Assembly: GCF_000317125.1 (NCBI RefSeq)
Contig: NC_019695.1
Span: 358,336-422,335 of the forward strand
DNA length: 64,000 nucleotides
Source of the DNA: Chroococcidiopsis thermalis PCC 7203
Lineage (GTDB): Bacteria > Cyanobacteriota > Cyanobacteriia > Cyanobacteriales > Chroococcidiopsidaceae
Direction: 5' to 3'
Made by a program: the position numbers and the translations under genes. The notes under the pieces are model-generated. The model was not told the DNA's origin. It saw nothing but the letters and a program-made list of their open reading frames with translations, and did not search any database. Every line of letters starts with the position of its first letter. Position 1 is the stretch's first letter. Shown piece by piece: positions 3,592 through 32,794 of this stretch.

Positions 3592-4587
3592 TCAGCTCTC
3601 TTCCCCCTGCTCTCTGCTCCCAGCTCGTCCCTGCTCCCTCATCAGTACATCTTCTGCTAAAGCGACTGCACCCCAAAGTGGCGCTTTATCTCCCAAGGCG
3701 GCGGGGACGATCTCGAAGTGGACTTCGGGTAATGCTGTGGCTCGCGCTATGTGGTGGATAGCATTCCAAAAGCGATCGCCTGCTTTGGTGACGCTACCAC
3801 CTAAAATAAACCGTTGGGGATTGATGAGGTTGGCGACGTTGCCAATCGCTACTCCCAAAGCCCAACCAGCTGTTTCTAATGCCTCGATCGCAATTTTATC
3901 TCCTTGGGTAGCGGCTTGACTGACCATCAGTCCCGTTATCTCATCTAGGTTATCGTGACAAAGCGATCGCAACAGCTTCCCTTTATCTGGATGTAAATTT
4001 AACCGATCCTTGGTCTGTTGGGCGATGTAGGGACCAGAAGCCAGTCGTTCTAAGCATCCACGCTTACCGCACAAACAAACAGGACCAGTCGGATCGACGA
4101 CTACATGTCCGATCTCCCCTGCCATTCCTTCTATTCCCCGCCAAGGGCGATCGTTGAGAATCCAGCCTCCACCTACACCCGTGCTGACAGTAATATAAAG
4201 CAAACTGTTATAACCCATCCCCGCACCATAGCGATGTTCGCCCAATGCCGCGACATTCGCATCGTTGTCCACACTGGCAGGAGCGCCAAATTCTCGCTCT
4301 AGGATCTCCTGTAAAGGCATATTTTCCCACCCGCTGACGTGGTGCGACAGTCTGACTTTACCGCTTGTAGCATCCACAGGTCCACCAAAGCTGACACCGA
4401 TCGCCCTTGGTTCTCTACCTGCTAACAGTTCCCGTGCCAGACTCAACATTATCTCTAGATCGGATTGAGCATGAGGATTTGGCGGTGAAAAAACCCTTTT
4501 GTCACTCAACTGGTGTTTTTCTCCTGAAGCTACCACCGCCGCCGCGTGTTTAGTTCCACCAAAATCTAGCGCCAGAATTAGATTCAT
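3592..4587 (-). CDS. ROK family sugar kinase/regulator
   Basis: N-terminal LDFGGTK ATP-binding motif and the ROK zinc signature CLCGKRGCLE. The C-terminal tail (REQGRAGSREQGEES) is a translation of the repeat DNA, so the true stop may be slightly upstream. Confidence 0.8.
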   Translation of the reverse strand: MNLILALDFGGTKHAAAVVASGEKHQLSDKRVFSPPNPHAQSDLEIMLSLARELLAGREPRAIGVSFGGPVDATSGKVRLSHHVSGWENMPLQEILEREFGAPASVDNDANVAALGEHRYGAGMGYNSLLYITVSTGVGGGWILNDRPWRGIEGMAGEIGHVVVDPTGPVCLCGKRGCLERLASGPYIAQQTKDRLNLHPDKGKLLRSLCHDNLDEITGLMVSQAATQGDKIAIEALETAGWALGVAIGNVANLINPQRFILGGSVTKAGDRFWNAIHHIARATALPEVHFEIVPAALGDKAPLWGAVALAEDVLMREQGRAGSREQGEES

Positions 4588-26783: not shown

Positions 26784-27800
26784 TTGCTTTGTAGATTCAG
26801 CAGTAAGATCGGGAAGTCGCTCGACTTTTTGGCTGTGCTGGGCATTCTGATAGTTCTCCTATCTTCCTTTGTCTTATCTTTCCACAACATCACCGTTCGA
26901 GTTCTATTTGCAGAGCATCTCGTTCTCGGTTTATTTCTTTTGGGTGGATACGTTAAACCCGATTTGCCTCATTCGTTCTTGCTGATGTTCATGCGAATGC
27001 TGTTAGTGGTTCCACTCATGGCATTTCTCGCACCCAAGTTGTACCCGTCTGCATGGAAAGAATGCCAAAACTTATTCCACCGCGATCGCCGCGATGTTCT
27101 GGTGCAGGCATTTGGCTGTGGAGTATTGATGTTTGTCTATGTTGCCTCACTCTACGTTGCCATTGGGTTGATTCCAACTGGCATCGCCATGACGCTATTT
27201 TTCACCTATCCCATATTCACAGCACTATTAGCTTGGCAATTTTTTGGCGATCGCCCAACACTGTTTCGCTGGGTCGTTATGGGCATCATTTTAGTAGGTA
27301 GTGCCTTTACAATTCCTCAATCTACGCCTACTCAGAATAGTTATGCAATTGCGATCGGCATTCTTGCCAGCGTCGGCTCTGGAGTTGTTTATGCTCTTTA
27401 TACAGTCATTGCCCAAAAATGCTTTGAAAAACTGCATCCCATTCCCTTCACCTGGATCAGTTTTGCTACCACGCTGCTATTTTCTGGCATGAGTCTGTTA
27501 TTTTGGCAACTCCCCTATACCAATCTTGCCTGGACACCTTTATGGATTGGCGGCATATTTTCAGGGTTAGTGAGTTTTCTCGGACACATTTTGAATAATA
27601 TTGGTATTCGCTCGATTGGTGCAACCGCTGCCTCTATAATTGGTTCTAGCAGTCCGGCATTGACAGCATTAGTTGCTTGGCTAATAATTCACGAAACCTT
27701 AAATACAGTTCAAATTTTAGGGATTGGTATTGTCACGTTGGGTATTGCTTTGTTGAGTGGTGAACGAGCTTTAATTAAGCGATCGCATCACCCTAACTGA
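26784..27800 (+). CDS. DMT-superfamily (EamA-like) transporter
   Basis: About 10 TM segments with duplicated EamA-like halves. The true start may be at a downstream Met. Confidence 0.6.
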   Translation: MLCRFSSKIGKSLDFLAVLGILIVLLSSFVLSFHNITVRVLFAEHLVLGLFLLGGYVKPDLPHSFLLMFMRMLLVVPLMAFLAPKLYPSAWKECQNLFHRDRRDVLVQAFGCGVLMFVYVASLYVAIGLIPTGIAMTLFFTYPIFTALLAWQFFGDRPTLFRWVVMGIILVGSAFTIPQSTPTQNSYAIAIGILASVGSGVVYALYTVIAQKCFEKLHPIPFTWISFATTLLFSGMSLLFWQLPYTNLAWTPLWIGGIFSGLVSFLGHILNNIGIRSIGATAASIIGSSSPALTALVAWLIIHETLNTVQILGIGIVTLGIALLSGERALIKRSHHPN

Positions 27801-27802
27801 AA

Positions 27803-28531
27803 TTAAACATTATCAAAACTACTAATAACGGGAAACCCTTCCGAATCTGATGTCCGATTGCCCGATCGCAGAGAAAAAAGCGTTCGCATTCCCGCTGCCT
27901 TAGCTGCTTTTAGTTCTGCCGTCACATCTGAAATAAACAGAATTTGTGTTGGTAACACTCCGATCGCTTGAGCAATCTTGCGATAACTTTCTGCCTCTTT
28001 TTTTGAGCCAGTTTCAGTATCAAAATAACCGCTCAAAAACCGAGTTAAATCGCCTGCTTCAGAATATTGAAATAACAATTTTTGTGCTTGAACGCTACCT
28101 GACGAAAAGATATACAATCGCTTACCCTCACGAATCCAACGTTCAAATGAAGGTTTAACATCGGGAAAAAGTTGCGATCGCAGCGTTCCATCTCGATAAC
28201 CGCTTTCCCAAATTTTCCCCTGTAACGATTTGAGTCCGGTAGATTTGCGATCGGTTGCTATTAAATAATGAATGTAAGGTACGGCGGCGGTTGCTGAATT
28301 ATCCACCCATTCAGGTACATTCAACCCCTGAGCAAAATCGGCTGCATACTCTTGCCGCAATCGCTCTAAATCTGCTTGTACTGCACTTTCCTGAAAATGA
28401 GTTTGCAAAAATGCTTCTACCTGCTTTTGAGCAAAAGGAAACAACACGCCGAAAACGTAATCAATCGGGGTTGTGGTTCCTTCAATATCGAGCAAAATAA
28501 TATCTGCACGAGCAGAATAGCGATCGGGCAT
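27803..28531 (-). CDS. mtnC: Enolase-phosphatase E1 (acireductone synthase), HAD family, methionine salvage
   Basis: N-terminal ILLDIEGTTTPI HAD motif I and FSSGSV motif. The length and C-terminal motifs match MtnC. Confidence 0.75.
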   Translation of the reverse strand: MPDRYSARADIILLDIEGTTTPIDYVFGVLFPFAQKQVEAFLQTHFQESAVQADLERLRQEYAADFAQGLNVPEWVDNSATAAVPYIHYLIATDRKSTGLKSLQGKIWESGYRDGTLRSQLFPDVKPSFERWIREGKRLYIFSSGSVQAQKLLFQYSEAGDLTRFLSGYFDTETGSKKEAESYRKIAQAIGVLPTQILFISDVTAELKAAKAAGMRTLFSLRSGNRTSDSEGFPVISSFDNV

Positions 28532-28687
28532 GGTTACACAGAAATAATTACATGCATCAACCCGATCCAGTATACATATAGGGAATACAGATATGGCAGT
28601 CCTACCTAATTTATGAAACTCAAGCTTTTTTAGCTACTCCCTGCTATATTTGCTAACACACCCTTTTCGTTACAATGAGAATATCTG

Positions 28688-28996
28688 TTGCAATACTTCT
28701 CTATGAGTCAACCTACTGCATCGATCAACACCAAACTCATTGACTCTCTGGCTCAAATTATCCTTTCCCTCACCGACGAGGAGCGCCAACTTCTGGCGCA
28801 AAAAATTCAACATTCACCGTTGTCTGAGGAAGAGCATCAACATAAAAAAGAAGCTTTACAACGAGATATTACTTTGGGTGTGGAACAACTCAAGAACGGC
28901 GACTACACCGAGTATAACGATTCCTCACTACCCAACTTATTTGAAAATATTAAGAGACGCGCTAAACAAAGACTTGAGCAGGAGCCAGCTCAGTGA
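28688..28996 (+). CDS. parD: ParD-family type II antitoxin
   Basis: GVEQLKNGDYTEYNDSSLPNLFENIKRRAKQR resembles the ParD/CC2985-type antitoxin C-terminus. ATGA overlap with the downstream toxin. Confidence 0.6.
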   Translation: MQYFSMSQPTASINTKLIDSLAQIILSLTDEERQLLAQKIQHSPLSEEEHQHKKEALQRDITLGVEQLKNGDYTEYNDSSLPNLFENIKRRAKQRLEQEPAQ

Positions 28997-29283
28997 ATCG
29001 CTTCCGTCTTTCACAACAGGCAGAACAAGACTTGGAAGATATCTGGGTTTATCTAGCACGACAGAATGAACTTTTAGCGGACAAACAGATTGCCCAAATA
29101 TTAGACCGATTCCCTATGTTATCTCAATTTCCTGATATGGGTAAACAGCGTAACAATTTACTCCCTGGACTTCGGAGCTTTCCCGTTCAGCCCTACATCG
29201 TTTTTTATACTAAAATTGCGGATGGCATCGAAATTGTTAGAGTCTTGCACCAATTTAGAGATATTGACAGCCAGTTGTCGTAA
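28993..29283 (+). CDS. parE: RelE/ParE-family type II toxin
   Basis: 96 aa; the QAEQDLEDIWVY...IVFYTKIADGIEIVRVLH pattern is typical of ParE toxins. Confidence 0.7.
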   Translation: MNRFRLSQQAEQDLEDIWVYLARQNELLADKQIAQILDRFPMLSQFPDMGKQRNNLLPGLRSFPVQPYIVFYTKIADGIEIVRVLHQFRDIDSQLS

Positions 29284-29376
29284 TTTGGCGATCGCATTAG
29301 TAGAATGAGCAGCGCCTTCTACATTAATTAAATCAGTAACTTACTACAGGAGTGCCAGTAGCTACCAGAGAAAAGT

Positions 29377-30420
29377 ATGGTTGTTAAACATCAAGCTACT
29401 ATTCCACGCTTAACTGAAGGTAGTATCGAACAGTTACGCAAGAGAGGATTACCTGAATGCAACACTGATGAAGAAATAGCATTAGCAATGGGAATCAGCG
29501 TCGAAAAGCTGCATTTTTTAGCTGGCGATCGCTCTATATCTTCTACTTCACTTTATTCCCGCTTTCAGATTTCCAAAAAAACAGGTGCAGCGAGAACAAT
29601 TACTGCACCAACGCCCGAACTAAAAGCTGCTCAAAGATGGATTTTAAAGCATATTTTAGATAAGATAGAAATTCACGATGCAGCTCATGGTTTTTGTCGC
29701 GATCGCTCTATTGTTACCAATGCCACACCGCATGTAGGTAGAGATGTAATAGTAAAACTCGATCTACAAAACTTTTTTCAATTAATTACATATAAACGTG
29801 TCAAAGAATTATTTCATGGTTTTGGTTATTCTGAAACTGCGGCAACAATTTTTGGATTAATCTGTACGATCGCGACAACAAATAATAGTAATAAAACGAG
29901 CTGTAAAAATATAGAAAAACGTCACTTACCTGAAGGTGCGCCAACCAGCCCTGCTATTTCAAATCTGGTTTGCGATCGCCTCGATACGCATTTAACTAAA
30001 CTTGCCAATAATCTTGGATTTCGCTATACACGTTATGCCGACGATCTAACATTTTCTTGTTATGGAGCAGCTCATAAAGTAGATAAATTAATTCAAGAAA
30101 GTAAATCGATCGTTACTCAAGAAAGCTTTACAGTTAATTCTGATAAAACTCAAGTTTTAAGCAAATCTGTACAACAAATAGTCACGGGTATTGTGGTAAA
30201 CCAACAATTAAATCTATCTCGAAAAACGTTGAAAGCTTTCCGAGCTACTTTGTATCAAATCGAACGAGAAGGTTTATCAGGTAAAAAATGGGGGAATTCA
30301 AATAATTTAATTGCTACAATTACTGGGTTTGCTAACTACGTAGCAATGGTTAACCCCAGCAAAGGCGCAGAATTTTTAGCATCAGTAGAACGGATTAAAC
30401 AGAAATGCGATCGCTCCTAA
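29377..30420 (+). CDS. Retron-type reverse transcriptase (Ec86/retron-Eco1-like)
   Basis: Clear colinear similarity to the Ec86 RT as I recall it: LRKRGLP..ISVEKL, ELKAAQRWILKHILDK, NATPHVGRDVIVKLDLQNFF, LPEGAPTSPAISNLVCDRLD, YTRYADDLTFS (YADD) and the retron-specific VTG motif (IVTGIVVNQ). Confidence 0.85.
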   Translation: MVVKHQATIPRLTEGSIEQLRKRGLPECNTDEEIALAMGISVEKLHFLAGDRSISSTSLYSRFQISKKTGAARTITAPTPELKAAQRWILKHILDKIEIHDAAHGFCRDRSIVTNATPHVGRDVIVKLDLQNFFQLITYKRVKELFHGFGYSETAATIFGLICTIATTNNSNKTSCKNIEKRHLPEGAPTSPAISNLVCDRLDTHLTKLANNLGFRYTRYADDLTFSCYGAAHKVDKLIQESKSIVTQESFTVNSDKTQVLSKSVQQIVTGIVVNQQLNLSRKTLKAFRATLYQIEREGLSGKKWGNSNNLIATITGFANYVAMVNPSKGAEFLASVERIKQKCDRS

Positions 30421-30597
30421 GTTGTGAATAAAATATACAACTTGAGTAATTTCTCGCTTGCTATTTGCGGTTGTTGTGTTAAATTTATACCGAAGTAGTT
30501 GTAAAGTTACAAAGCTGTAGTACGGGTTCTGCATACCCGACTGGTACGCTGACTCATAGTATAAGCGTATACCGCAAAGTACTTTAGCTATTGCACC

Positions 30598-30669
30598 GTT
30601 TGATTAGCTCAGTTGGTAAGAGCGCCTGCTGTATGCGGGATGACCCAGGTTCAAATCCTGTATCAAACC
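30598..30669 (+). ncRNA. tRNA-like element 1 (pseudo-tRNA; anticodon loop reduced to 5 nt)
   Basis: Hand-folded: acceptor GTTTGAT/ATCAAAC, U8, D-arm GCTC-AGTTGGTAA-GAGC, T-arm CCAGG-TTCAAAT-CCTGT. The anticodon arm folds only as CCTGC-tgtat-GCGGG, a 5-nt loop. Confidence 0.5.
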
Positions 30670-30671
30670 CC

Positions 30672-30745
30672 CGAAAGTTAGCTCATTTGGTTAGAGCAAT
30701 CGGTGTATCGCCGATTGGTAGCAGGTTCGATTCCTGTACTTTCTC
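30672..30745 (+). ncRNA. tRNA-like element 2 (non-canonical anticodon loop UGUAUCG, no U33)
   Basis: Acceptor cGAAAGT/ACTTTCt with a mismatched first pair, D-arm GCTC-ATTTGGTTA-GAGC, anticodon stem ATCGG/CCGAT with loop TGTATCG, T-arm GCAGG-TTCGATT-CCTGT. Confidence 0.5.
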
Positions 30746-31207
30746 CAAAATCCCCTCGTCCTGGGTACGGACACCTTGTTAGGGACAAGGCAATTTAACG
30801 GATACAGGTTAGGCGAAGTCTAACGCTGGACGTGTTTGTTTGATGAGTTCGTGAATTACTCTGTCATGCAGGTGTTTTATTGCAGTTCAGGAGCCAGCGC
30901 AAATGTAATTCTCTCTAACTTGAGTATGTCCTTCGTTTTCCCAATCCGATTCTCTACAGAGACTCTGGCACAGGCAAATCGAACGGCGTATTTGAGCGTT
31001 GTTGGCTTTGGTTGAATTACCTTCGGGTGTTCTGGCAAGGTTACAGCACTCTTCATCCAGTTTTGGAGAATCTTTTGCCCGCACCAAGATTGTTAACCCC
31101 TGTACTGGCAGAGTAAAACATATTTTTGTATTATATGTAGTATACCGAAATTATCTTGCTAAGGGTTGTAAGCTCCTGGTTAGTAGCTAAAGCTGCCAAA
31201 AAGACGA

Positions 31208-32794
31208 ATGTTCTTATCTAATCTTCTCCGGCGGGTACAGTTGCCCAAATTATCGATTCAAATTTCTATGTGGAAAACCTTTTACATCAAGCCTAACGAA
31301 ATCGGAATTTTATATTACCGCAGCGATTTTAAGAAGATTTTACAGCCAGGAACTTACACTTATTTGGGTCGCCACTGGCAAGTCAAAACTTATGACTTGA
31401 ACCAGCCAGAAGTTAAGATTGAAAATTTAGAATTATTGCTCAGAACCCACGAAGCCGAATTACAAGAGCATCTATTAATTATTAGAACAGCATTTAACCA
31501 AGCTGCTTTAGTACGCTGCGGTCAAACCTGGATAAGTGTCATGCCAAATCAACTACGTGCTTTTTGGCGTGGCTTTATTGAGGTAGAATCTCATATTTTC
31601 AATTTAGAAGAAAGTCTAGAATTACCTGCTGAATTTGTTCAGCAATTGCGCGGACTTGCCATAAACGGATTGAAAAAATTCCAAATTTCAGAGTATGAAA
31701 TTGGCTTGCTATACGTTCAAAATAACTTTATTAGACCTCTAGAACAAGGGGAATATGCTTTTTGGACTGTAAATCGGGATGTTGCACTAAGAACTCTCAG
31801 CCGGATCGTACCTAACCCAGACTTTCCACTAGAAGATGTAATGATTGAACAACATCCTGAGTTTGTTTCAGCCTATTGCGAAGTCGTACAATTACAAGAT
31901 CGACAAGTAGCAATTGTCCGGTATTTGGGTAAAGTTATTGCTATTTTGCCACCTACAAGCCGCAAGTTATTTTGGCGCGGTGTGGAATTGGAAATGATCG
32001 ATATTAGTAGCAATGCTAAATTATCGCCTAATTTAGTAGCAGAATTGTTGGCAGGTTCTAAAGAAGTTCTATTACTAAGCCATAACAGTTTGCACGTTCG
32101 AGAAGTACCCGCGCAGCACGTTGGTTTATTGTATGTAAATCAAGAATTTCAAGCTTTACTAGAGCCAGGAATACATGCTTGGTGGTTGTATGGACGCTCC
32201 TTTCAAACTGAAGTGATTGACATGCGTTTGCAAAATATCGAGGTATCCGGTCAAGATATTCTATCAAAAGATAAAGTTCCTCTACGCTTGAACTTAACTG
32301 CTGGTTTTCGCATTCAAGATCCGCTGAGAGCAAAAAATGGTTTATCAGATATTTCTAGTTTCTTGTATAAAGAATTACAGTTTGCTTTACGTGCAGCAGT
32401 TGGCGAACAAACTTTGGATGCACTATTAGAAAATAAAGGTGCGATCGATCGCAGTGTTGCTGAATACATTCGTAGCAAAACCGCAGACTATGGAATTGAA
32501 GTTGATTCTGTCGGGGTGAAAGATATAATTTTACCTGGCGAGATTAAGACAATATTGAGCAAGGTAGTAGAAGCGGAAAAAGCTGCTCAAGCAAACGTAG
32601 TTAGACGCAGAGAAGAAACCGCAGCTACTCGCAGTATGTTAAATACTGCAAAAGTGATGGAAGATAACCCTGTTGCTTTGCGTTTGAAAGAATTGGAGGT
32701 ATTAGAACGAATTGCAGAAAAGATCGATCGCATTCAAGTTAATGGCAGTTTAGATAGTATTTTGACCGAATTAATTCAGATTAATCGGCAATAA
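31208..32794 (+). CDS. SPFH/band-7 (stomatin/prohibitin-like) protein with three degenerate N-terminal SPFH-N repeats
   Basis: The C-terminal half is a canonical band-7 domain plus coiled coil (KDIILPGEIKTILSKVVEAEKAAQANVVRRREETAA). The N-terminal 300 aa hold three repeats of an E(I/Y)G(I/L)LY...PG(T/E/I) motif. Confidence 0.75.
   Translation: MFLSNLLRRVQLPKLSIQISMWKTFYIKPNEIGILYYRSDFKKILQPGTYTYLGRHWQVKTYDLNQPEVKIENLELLLRTHEAELQEHLLIIRTAFNQAALVRCGQTWISVMPNQLRAFWRGFIEVESHIFNLEESLELPAEFVQQLRGLAINGLKKFQISEYEIGLLYVQNNFIRPLEQGEYAFWTVNRDVALRTLSRIVPNPDFPLEDVMIEQHPEFVSAYCEVVQLQDRQVAIVRYLGKVIAILPPTSRKLFWRGVELEMIDISSNAKLSPNLVAELLAGSKEVLLLSHNSLHVREVPAQHVGLLYVNQEFQALLEPGIHAWWLYGRSFQTEVIDMRLQNIEVSGQDILSKDKVPLRLNLTAGFRIQDPLRAKNGLSDISSFLYKELQFALRAAVGEQTLDALLENKGAIDRSVAEYIRSKTADYGIEVDSVGVKDIILPGEIKTILSKVVEAEKAAQANVVRRREETAATRSMLNTAKVMEDNPVALRLKELEVLERIAEKIDRIQVNGSLDSILTELIQINRQ

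Follow-up and report, generated by a model that had tools for sequence, protein, structure and literature searches.

Which RNA and which protein does a retron-type reverse transcriptase (RT) work with when neither of its customary neighbours is in place? The question is raised by a stretch of 64,000 nucleotides of Chroococcidiopsis thermalis PCC 7203 (NCBI RefSeq contig NC_019695.1, positions 358,336 to 422,335 of the forward strand; called the window below), in which a gene for such an enzyme lies at 29377–30420 on the + strand. To our knowledge, three parts define a retron (an RT, an msr-msd RNA and an effector), and all classified types are built on that plan. A preliminary description of the DNA, made from its letters alone, had seen neither of the latter two beside the gene and had left two explanations, a new architecture or a decayed retron. 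Our answer, in which we place evenly divided confidence, is that a functional RT of a distinct short clade is fixed in a cassette with a structured RNA of ~650 nt, which has a putative promoter of its own, and a gene for an SPFH protein, and that the enzyme acts on this RNA.

The RT gene is an intact open reading frame (ORF) of 347 amino acids, and its identification as a retron-type RT holds by the ORF list, the positions of the motifs and the PADLOC models alike. All motifs that had been quoted are present (LRKRGLP at residue 20, ISVEKL at 40, NATPHVG at 115, LPEGAPTSP at 184, YADD at 220–223 and VTG at 269–271), and the protein thus shows the NAxxH region, YADD and VTG that mark an RT of the retron clade. 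Pfam RVT_1 matches the ORF (3.8e-24). It had been called Ec86-like, and this is correct insofar as the nearest solved structure in the PDB is the RT of Ec86 (Retron-Eco1, type II-A; 1.6e-43), which is colinear with it over residues 19–295 and shares the NAxxH, YADD and VTG motifs. The closest family, however, is a different one: the top PADLOC model is RT_XIII (3.4e-148, 492.5 bits), compared to 253.8 bits for RT_II-A, the Ec86 type. The best 25 of the 74 families with PADLOC models matching the protein are all retron RTs. Its NCBIfam scores are 1.7e-66 for retron St85 and 9.7e-64 for retron Ec67, compared to only 2.6e-19 for group II. As the enzyme is of the type XIII lineage and not of the Eco1 type, an NDT effector was never to be expected. 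The ORF list, Pfam and PADLOC agree with the earlier remark that no NDT-like or other known retron effector is present, so that the locus differs from Retron-Eco1 in this respect as well as in having no upstream msr-msd.

The alignment to RT_XIII spans profile positions 99–427 of 469. Since the profile is covered from position 99 only, the N-terminal extension typical of type XIII is missing. A protein search with the RT returned ~4900 homologues, the nearest of which are all cyanobacterial and fall into two lengths, a short one of ~340–370 amino acids and a long one of ~465–475 amino acids with a coiled N-terminal extension of ~120 amino acids. The short RTs make up about 30 protein clusters across several cyanobacterial orders, and the RT of the window is 55–60% identical to cyanobacterial type XIII RTs. 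When 88 RT cores are placed in a neighbour-joining tree, the short RTs form a single clade, apart from the long RTs of cyanobacteria and other phyla (60+ canonical sequences), and all short RTs linked to an SPFH gene fall into that one clade. By sequence, the RT is thus a member of a monophyletic, cyanobacteria-wide short sister clade of the retron type XIII (Mx162 clade) RTs, rather than of the Eco1 type to which it had been assigned.

We next consider whether this gene is still maintained. Its ratio of non-synonymous to synonymous substitution rates (dN/dS) is 0.17–0.25 for pairs with a dS of ~0.5–1.4, and 0.44–0.51 in the two closest pairs. These values indicate that the gene is under purifying selection and is not decaying in the C. 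thermalis genome. Taken together, the intact ORF, the catalytic motifs, the low dN/dS and the conserved monophyletic clade argue that the locus is not decayed, contrary to one of the two explanations offered earlier. According to that explanation, the RT would be an orphan left after the loss of its msr-msd and effector, and the two tRNA-like elements downstream of it would be debris of a tRNA gene or of an integration site. We regard this as very improbable. It would account for the want of a canonical non-coding RNA (ncRNA) or effector, for the missing N-terminal extension and for the higher dN/dS of the two closest pairs, and loss of the RT does occur, as a 22-amino-acid remnant in Gloeothece PCC 7424 attests. 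It is difficult to reconcile, however, with a 347-residue ORF whose catalytic motifs are complete, with ~30 clusters of the same length that occur in several orders, form one clade and retain a dN/dS of 0.17–0.25 at saturation-level dS, with compensatory changes that keep the cloverleaves of the tRNA-like elements, or with a neighbourhood that holds no integrase.

Type XIII corresponds to RT clade 10, which includes Retron-Mxa1/Mx162, Mxa2/Mx65 and Nex2/Ne144, has an ncRNA structure of its own, is linked to a SWIM/winged-helix protein (cluster 114) and a HEAT/ARM protein (cluster 216), and is inherited vertically (Mestre et al. 2020, PMC7736814). For comparison, 80 genomic loci were fetched and their ORFs clustered, and a metagenome scan with the motif of an RNA domain described below (domain C) added only 4 loci; the census comprises 96 loci in total, whose L numbers are used here where single loci must be told apart. 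The long-RT loci consist of a ~1060-residue protein, a ~547-residue protein, a ~230-nt Mx162-like msr-msd and the RT. In the canonical locus L013, the first protein matches the PADLOC models WGR_XIII (1278 bits) and HEAT-ARM_XIII, and the second matches SWIM_XIII (825.9 bits). The clusters of these WGR/HEAT-ARM and SWIM genes occur in most long-RT loci and in none of the short-RT loci, and a tblastn search of the window found no homologue of WGR/HEAT-ARM_XIII, SWIM_XIII, KptA or OmdA. The RNA gives the same picture. An iterated nhmmer profile of the type XIII ncRNA matched 49 long-RT loci and 0 short-RT modules (E ≤ 10), and neither the motifs CATCACTAG and TTTACGAAGGG nor the a1/a2 sequences of the canonical ncRNA of long-RT loci, ATCACGCG/CGCGTGAT, were found in 30421–31207. 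An Rfam search over 27500–32000 (E ≤ 10), a check that the preliminary description had proposed, returned no retron msr/msd or RT-associated family; its only matches were two to tRNA and chance-level ones to YrlA and sR34. In these respects the short-RT loci, without Mx162-type msr-msd, WGR/HEAT-ARM and SWIM genes, differ from type XIII, while the RT core remains nearest to that type.

The region between the RT and the next gene is, in contrast to what its description as two defective tRNA-like elements and a non-coding stretch suggests, highly organized. The 787 nt that separate the RT and SPFH genes are more conserved than the RT gene itself, and the insertions and deletions in an alignment of 10 such intergenic regions are not multiples of three. 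Within them lies a conserved non-coding module of ~650 nt (30477–31119), composed of a domain A, one or two tRNA-shaped elements, an element B and a domain C. The tRNA-like elements are indeed present, but they belong to the conserved core of this structured module and are not defective. The module supports the other explanation offered earlier, a new architecture with an RNA partner downstream of the RT. Because its many G-U pairs would turn into A-C mismatches on the other strand, the RNA is assigned to the + strand, that of the RT. No reading frame is open across the module copies on either strand, domain C and its complement having been checked. An endless ORF of the DRT2/Neo kind, on either strand of domain C, was rejected on the same ground and because the lengths are not multiples of three, and an antisense ORF cluster over the module (c19) proved to be an artefact of RNA conservation. 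We conclude that the module is a previously undescribed cyanobacterial RNA family, present with or without an RT.

Conservation of the module starts at an invariant TG-n-TAnnnT. The T..TG.TA...T columns are invariant in 23 module copies, and we read the window's TG-n-TAAATT (30477–30485, + strand) by eye as a putative extended -10 promoter of the module. A scan with promoter and terminator consensus sequences gave nothing beyond the expectation from shuffled sequence, and did not list the site at 30477–30485, which has no -35 element. Domain A (30492–30597, + strand; nhmmer match at 30472–30597, E 1e-34) is a multi-helix RNA of ~105 nt that is closed by an outer helix, and RNAalifold assigned it 28 pairs from the 23 copies, 10 of them with compensatory changes. 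Domain C (30857–31119, + strand; nhmmer E 5.2e-75) forms a rod of ~263 nt with a closing helix of 16 bp (30858–30873 with 31101–31117) and a three-way junction at its far end. In 25 copies its 83 pairs are 90.3% paired, compared to 35–44% when the partners are slid against each other, and 29 pairs have changed on both sides; 0 of 500 shuffles attained the observed values. A sigma-70-like match, CTGGCA-18-TATTAT at 31105–31134, overlaps the 3' strand of the domain C closing helix. In Nostoc and Stigonema, the homologous TATTATG of the copies that precede the RT includes the RT start codon, so that a promoter role is doubtful there.

Between the tRNA-like elements and domain C lie element B and a variable linker. 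Element B (30752–30791, + strand; located by the motif map) consists of two adjacent hairpins, GUCC-UGGGUAC-GGAC and CCUUGU-UAGGG-ACAAGG. It is near-invariant among the 15 modules of the type found downstream of the RT (d-type, see below), and the variants of the first stem (GCCC/GGGC, GUCC/GGAC and GCCU/AGGC) are compensatory. A pseudoknot between an upstream CCCU and the loop AGGG is possible. In the second hairpin (CCUUGU/ACAAGG, 30774–30790), CCUU pairs with AAGG as it does in the junction helix around msr and msd of canonical type XIII RNAs (columns 39–42 with 228–231 of alignment A10); this likeness may be due to chance or mark a remnant that has collapsed. The linker (30792–30856, + strand), delimited by the alignment of the 10 intergenic regions, takes in Nostoc the form of a hairpin with an A/T run after it and so looks like a terminator.

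Two tRNA-like elements follow domain A in tandem on the + strand. The type 1 element (30598–30671; acceptor GUUUGAU/AUCAAAC, then CCCC) was called Tyr-GTA by ARAGORN and scored 44.8 bits against the Rfam tRNA family, and the type 2 element (30672–30746; acceptor GAAAGU/ACUUUC, then U-CCA) was called Ile-TAT and scored 44.3 bits. A decoding identity fails for both. The ‘Tyr’ element is without the long variable arm and has an abnormal anticodon arm, with a loop that is 5 nt long or shifted, while the type 2 loop, UGUAUCG, has G33 and C37 instead of U33 and a purine at 37. In 12 of 31 copies the first pair of the acceptor stem does not match; such a mismatch is a feature of type 2, in the window as elsewhere. 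The cloverleaf itself is nevertheless kept: in 34 copies from all modules, 97.3% of the cells are paired and 14 of 21 pairs show compensatory changes. Types 1 and 2 recur in tandem, type 1 being usually followed by C-CCA (as in Nostoc, AUCAAAC-C-CCA) and type 2 by N-CCA (as in the window, ACUUUC-U-CCA), although CCA is absent from several copies (L007d, L010d). This covariation identifies the elements as conserved tRNA-like cloverleaves, which in the window are neither decoding tRNAs nor debris. Some modules of the second subtype (u-type, see below) contain a third tRNA-like element (L036:7099–7173, L092:9414–9488, L095:1517–1593); those of L036 and L092 resemble initiator tRNA-fMet (TGCGGAATAGAGCAG...GGTTCAAATCC) with an altered anticodon.

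The ‘anticodon arm’ of the type 2 element provides the most specific connection to retrons. This hairpin, AAUCGG-UGUAUCG-CCGAUU (30698–30716, + strand; core CGGUGKAUCGCCG), matches in form and in core a hairpin that the canonical type XIII ncRNAs conserve in their 5' (msr) part. That canonical hairpin has a 6-bp stem that covaries (GGGCGG/CCGTCC, GGACAG/CTGTCC, GGATGG/CCATCC, GAATGG/CCATTC and GGGCGA/TCGTCC) and a 7-nt loop with the consensus UGKWUCG (UGGAUCG 27 times, UGUAUCG 5, UGUUUCG 4 and UGGUUCG 3). Within the window the shared 13-mer CGGTGKATCGCCG is found once, with a match in 0 of 100 shuffles, and as a hairpin pattern it is found a single time in the 128 kb of both strands. It is present in 33 of the 96 loci, on the RT strand every time, and in the loci checked it sits either in the canonical msr of long RTs or in a tRNA-like element beside short RTs. 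Because L091 bears it on a type 1 element, the hairpin is kept independently of a particular scaffold. Retron RTs, including that of Ec86, recognise their cognate msr stem-loops. Read most simply, the RT of the short clade would still dock on the hairpin at 30698–30716, which makes this hairpin a putative docking site. The window thus shares with type XIII the msr hairpin with its 6-bp stem and UGKWUCG loop, and differs in that this hairpin is placed in a tRNA-shaped scaffold of a ~650-nt RNA 3' of an RT without the ~120-residue extension, in a separate sister clade, next to an SPFH gene.

A gene for an RT linked to cloverleaf RNAs, most of them with an encoded CCA, also recalls other retroelements. 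In the Mauriceville and Varkud retroplasmids the RT uses the CCA end of a 3' tRNA-like structure, and long terminal repeat (LTR) retroelements employ tRNA primers. By analogy, complementary DNA (cDNA) synthesis could start at the 3' end of the tRNA-like RNA, either at the CCA in the Mauriceville manner or with this end serving as a primer on a complementary site. The encoded CCA of most type 1 and type 2 elements and the conservation of the cloverleaves would suit such a start, which we consider improbable all the same. No conserved complement to the 3' ends of the tRNA-like elements exists in 14 modules, several copies (the two named above among them) have no CCA, and retron RTs prime from the 2'-OH of a branching G and not from a 3' end. 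The locus further differs from retroplasmids and LTR elements in the retron lineage of its RT and in the msr hairpin of the anticodon arm. A perfect 10-nt complementarity does exist in the window, between the 3' tail of the type 2 element (UUCUCCAAAA, 30739–30748) and a conserved hairpin of domain C (UUUUGGAGAA, 31061–31070); it is confined to the Chroococcidiopsis lineage.

Downstream of the module lies a gene that the preliminary description, which saw no effector candidate there, had overlooked. This ORF of 528 codons (31208–32794, + strand) encodes a stomatin-type SPFH/Band-7 protein of the ‘slipin family’, with a C-terminal Band_7/SPFH domain (7.8e-29). The true start is likely the methionine of MWKTFY at 31268, which gives a protein of 508 amino acids. 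No transmembrane helix is predicted, and no hydrophobic segment is present (maximum KD19 1.08). The AlphaFold model (pLDDT 80) shows five 5-stranded β units, an SPFH α/β core and a long C-terminal helix, and its core has the fold that defines the SPFH/Band 7 family. Stomatin, HflK/C, prohibitin and QmcA are relatives, and by analogy with this family the protein is probably an atypical soluble member that forms oligomeric rings or cages; it differs from most members of the family in having no membrane anchor. Foldseek aligned the full-length protein, including its β-repeat units, to the major vault protein (MVP) with E values of 5e-14 to 1e-11 and a TM-score of only about 0.3. The vault ribonucleoprotein (RNP) is composed of MVP, vault RNA, TEP1 and PARP4, and the combination of an SPFH protein with a structured RNA and an RT (or, in relatives without the RT, with KptA/Tpt1, which has an ADP-ribosyltransferase fold) bears some likeness to it. 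This vault analogy is speculative, and ‘true’ bacterial MVP homologues belong to another family than the SPFH protein of the window (bioRxiv 10.1101/872010). The protein matches no PADLOC defence model beyond a chance-level hit to Cas4 (0.0089). It is 80–88% identical across cyanobacteria with a dN/dS of 0.07–0.10, compared to an identity of about 62% for the RT. As a conserved partner, it is a candidate effector.

The partnership recurs in other genomes. In the window, and likewise in 16 other loci that are long enough to judge, the same SPFH gene (cluster c13) lies 0.5–1.6 kb 3' of the RT. These loci come from Chroococcidiopsis, Scytonema millei, several Nostoc, Kamptonema, Oscillatoria nigro-viridis PCC 7112, Cyanosarcina, a metagenome-assembled genome of the Oculatellaceae and, as a fragmented copy, Chamaesiphon. 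RT, d-type module and SPFH gene are adjacent in Chroococcidiopsidales, Nostocales, Oscillatoriales, Chroococcales and Chamaesiphon. Because the flanking genes vary by lineage (HAD hydrolase, DEAD helicase, DUF3120, ThiG and others), this adjacency has been maintained through rearrangements. The cassette is chromosomal and appears to be vertically inherited, and its synteny agrees in this with the vertical inheritance of type XIII.

Three insertions were seen in single loci. In L092 (7552–9228), a group II intron RT/maturase (RVT_N, RVT_1, GIIM, HNH) splits a short RT with its module from a second module with the SPFH gene. L002 (9093–9990) has a lineage-specific insertion of ~900 nt between RT and module, and in L044 (1005–1500) a lineage-specific insertion that contains ORFs interrupts domain A.

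Two subtypes of the module can be distinguished. The d-type, which carries the msr-like hairpin and element B, is located directly 3' of every short RT, whereas the u-type has a Met-like loop CUCAUAA and a different element B', and is located 5' of the RT in Nostocales and Oscillatoriales or, in loci without an RT, 5' of KptA/OmdA-SPFH. Of the 19 RT loci that could be assessed, 18 have a d-type module, compared to 2 of 6 RT-less loci (Fisher p = 0.005, uncorrected for phylogeny). The exception among the RT loci is L044, with its insertion in domain A, and one of the RT-less d-type loci contains an RT remnant. This locus, L094 of Gloeothece citriformis PCC 7424, retains the last 22 codons of the RT (MKNPGKGAEFLASVERIKHKYE, 3999–4064), followed by an intact d-type module and the SPFH gene, and by its sequence represents a loss of the RT with RNA and SPFH gene retained. 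Where a second module stands immediately 5' of the RT, as in Nostocales and Oscillatoriales, the RT start codon follows domain C after ~20 nt (u-modules of Nostoc and Stigonema) or ~55 nt (Oscillatoria, L088; Kamptonema, L010). Domain C is therefore in or near the 5' leader of the RT, where the ncRNA of a retron usually lies.

Loci with module and SPFH gene but without any RT are L081 (module, SPFH), L084 (module, OmdA, SPFH), L093 from Trichormus variabilis (module, KptA/Tpt1 (PTS_2-RNA), DUF8412/OmdA, SPFH), L095 from Calothrix NIES-2098 (module, kinase, partial module, OmdA, SPFH) and L096 (DUF3386, module, then an SPFH protein of 660 residues). They lend weight to the main rival reading, which we consider possible though rather unlikely. 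The module would be a leader or partner RNA of the SPFH operon, with the tRNA-like elements as processing or regulatory signals and domain C as a control of translation or stability, and the RT would be a captured passenger that is only co-regulated and has any template elsewhere; in Nostocales, the RT would have acquired a copy of the leader. The 5–6 loci with module and SPFH gene alone, some of them with KptA/Tpt1 and OmdA in between, the conservation of SPFH far above that of the RT, and the module in Nostoc and Stigonema that ends ~20 nt before the RT start codon, physically a 5' untranslated region, are all in keeping with this, as is the fact that each protein gene of the cassette can have its own copy of the module. 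What it leaves unexplained is the hairpin shared with the msr of the sister family of this very RT. The d-type module, furthermore, correlates with the RT or its remnant, and the RT has lost its own ncRNA, yet is under purifying selection and has never parted from the module.

The same loci weigh against an RT that acts on the module, as do several other observations. Since RT-less loci exist and SPFH is far more conserved than the RT, RNA and SPFH must have a role that is independent of the RT. L096 retains the msr-like hairpin with no RT within 14 kb, and those modules that precede the RT in Nostoc belong to the u-type, in which the Met-like CUCAUAA takes the place of the msr-like loop. Within the module, no branching G or template could be assigned, nor was a primer-binding-like site found, and domain C runs as one continuous rod, whereas in a retron msr and msd form separate hairpins. 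It also has to be taken into account that all loci share descent, and co-occurrence counts overstate the number of independent observations.

With these points considered, our preferred reading, an RT acting on the module RNA, can be worded as follows. The short clade has lost the N-terminal extension, together with an msr-msd of the Mx162 type and the partner genes for the WGR/HEAT-ARM and SWIM proteins. Its RT would dock on the msr-like hairpin of the tRNA-like element and reverse-transcribe part of the module RNA into a product similar to multicopy single-stranded DNA (msDNA). The cloverleaves might supply processing sites for RNase P and RNase Z and thus defined RNA ends, and the a1/a2 role could fall either to an acceptor stem or to the helix of 16 bp that closes domain C. 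The RNA next to the RT does offer such closing helices, namely helix P1 of domain C and the tRNA-like acceptor stems, together with the msr-type hairpin. RT and RNA would act, or be regulated, through the SPFH protein as their partner, which probably forms an oligomeric cage or scaffold. Taken jointly, that the RT binds the hairpin and copies the module, that the cloverleaves are RNase P/Z signals and that SPFH is the functional partner seems to us a proposition for which the balance is about level. A more specific version, in which the tRNA-shaped RNA itself is the msr-msd equivalent, the RT makes a small cDNA from the tRNA-like or leader RNA, and the resulting complex of RNA, cDNA and RT functions jointly with the oligomeric SPFH cage or inside it, is put forward only tentatively, as we think it unlikely to hold in full. 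If true, this version would describe a vertically inherited, possibly housekeeping cyanobacterial RNP rather than a mobile defence island, and would establish a mechanistic connection between retron RTs and templates or primers of a tRNA-like kind.

Full-text searches of a library of papers found no description of an association of a retron or RT with SPFH proteins or tRNA-like elements, and a broader search on cyanobacteria, retrons and tRNA-like elements returned nothing relevant. The terms ‘SPFH’, ‘band 7’ and ‘tRNA’ are absent from the text of Mestre et al. 2020 (PMC7736814). The RT superfamily is known. What is new is the architecture: a large, new RNA carries an msr hairpin on a tRNA scaffold, the partner is an SPFH protein, and the whole is chromosomal and inherited vertically. 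A whole cyanobacterial clade of retron-lineage RTs keeps just the RT core and one msr hairpin, which has been moved into a tRNA-shaped scaffold, and its protein neighbour is no toxin-like effector but an SPFH protein of high conservation. The chromosomal and apparently vertical inheritance suggests that a retron RT has here been domesticated, perhaps for a role outside defence. Should the RT indeed act on the module RNA, the range of retron templates would be broader, a natural case of a bacterial RT that recognises tRNA-like RNA would be at hand, and a compact RT/RNA pair would become available for engineering. The locus should interest specialists in retrons and RTs as well as RNA biologists, an interest that is tempered by the existence of the RNA-SPFH pair independently of the RT.

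In some RT-less relatives, a KptA/Tpt1 gene and/or a DUF8412/OmdA-like gene lies between module and SPFH gene (L093:3825–4964, L084:10858–11424(-), L095:4419–5000). KptA/Tpt1 is an RNA 2'-phosphotransferase. An enzyme directed at the RNA 2' position thus stands in the place of the RT, and retron RTs prime from an RNA 2'-OH.

The last neighbours to be considered are located upstream of the RT. A ParE toxin gene (28993–29283, + strand; Pfam ParE_toxin, 3.1e-20) overlaps by 4 nt an ORF at 28688–28996 (+ strand). The two had been described as a ParD/ParE pair. The toxin and the overlap stand, and ParE with an adjacent upstream ORF has the arrangement of a type II toxin-antitoxin system at 28688–29283, but the upstream ORF matches no family and can be called an antitoxin by position only. 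The gap of 93 nt between ParE and RT follows from the coordinates 29283 and 29377, as had been stated. It is neither conserved among relatives nor structured (z = +0.94), which rules out an msr-msd hidden within the 93 nt 5' of the RT and, together with the Rfam result, agrees with the earlier statement that no canonical msr/msd lies upstream. That ParE might be the toxin effector of the RT, a possibility raised at the same time, is hardly credible. The toxin gene does end 93 nt 5' of the RT on the same strand, and co-transcription is possible; the upstream ORF, however, matches no antitoxin family, and ParDE was seen solely in the window, L001 and L085, all of them Chroococcidiopsis/Scytonema loci, whereas all other short-RT loci are without it. 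Among the latter is L086, where the order is 6PGD, EamA, HAD hydrolase, RT, module, SPFH and LPG synthase, which is the synteny of the window minus ParDE. Because of this syntenic locus and its restricted distribution, ParDE is regarded as a lineage-specific insertion and not as a component of the RT system.

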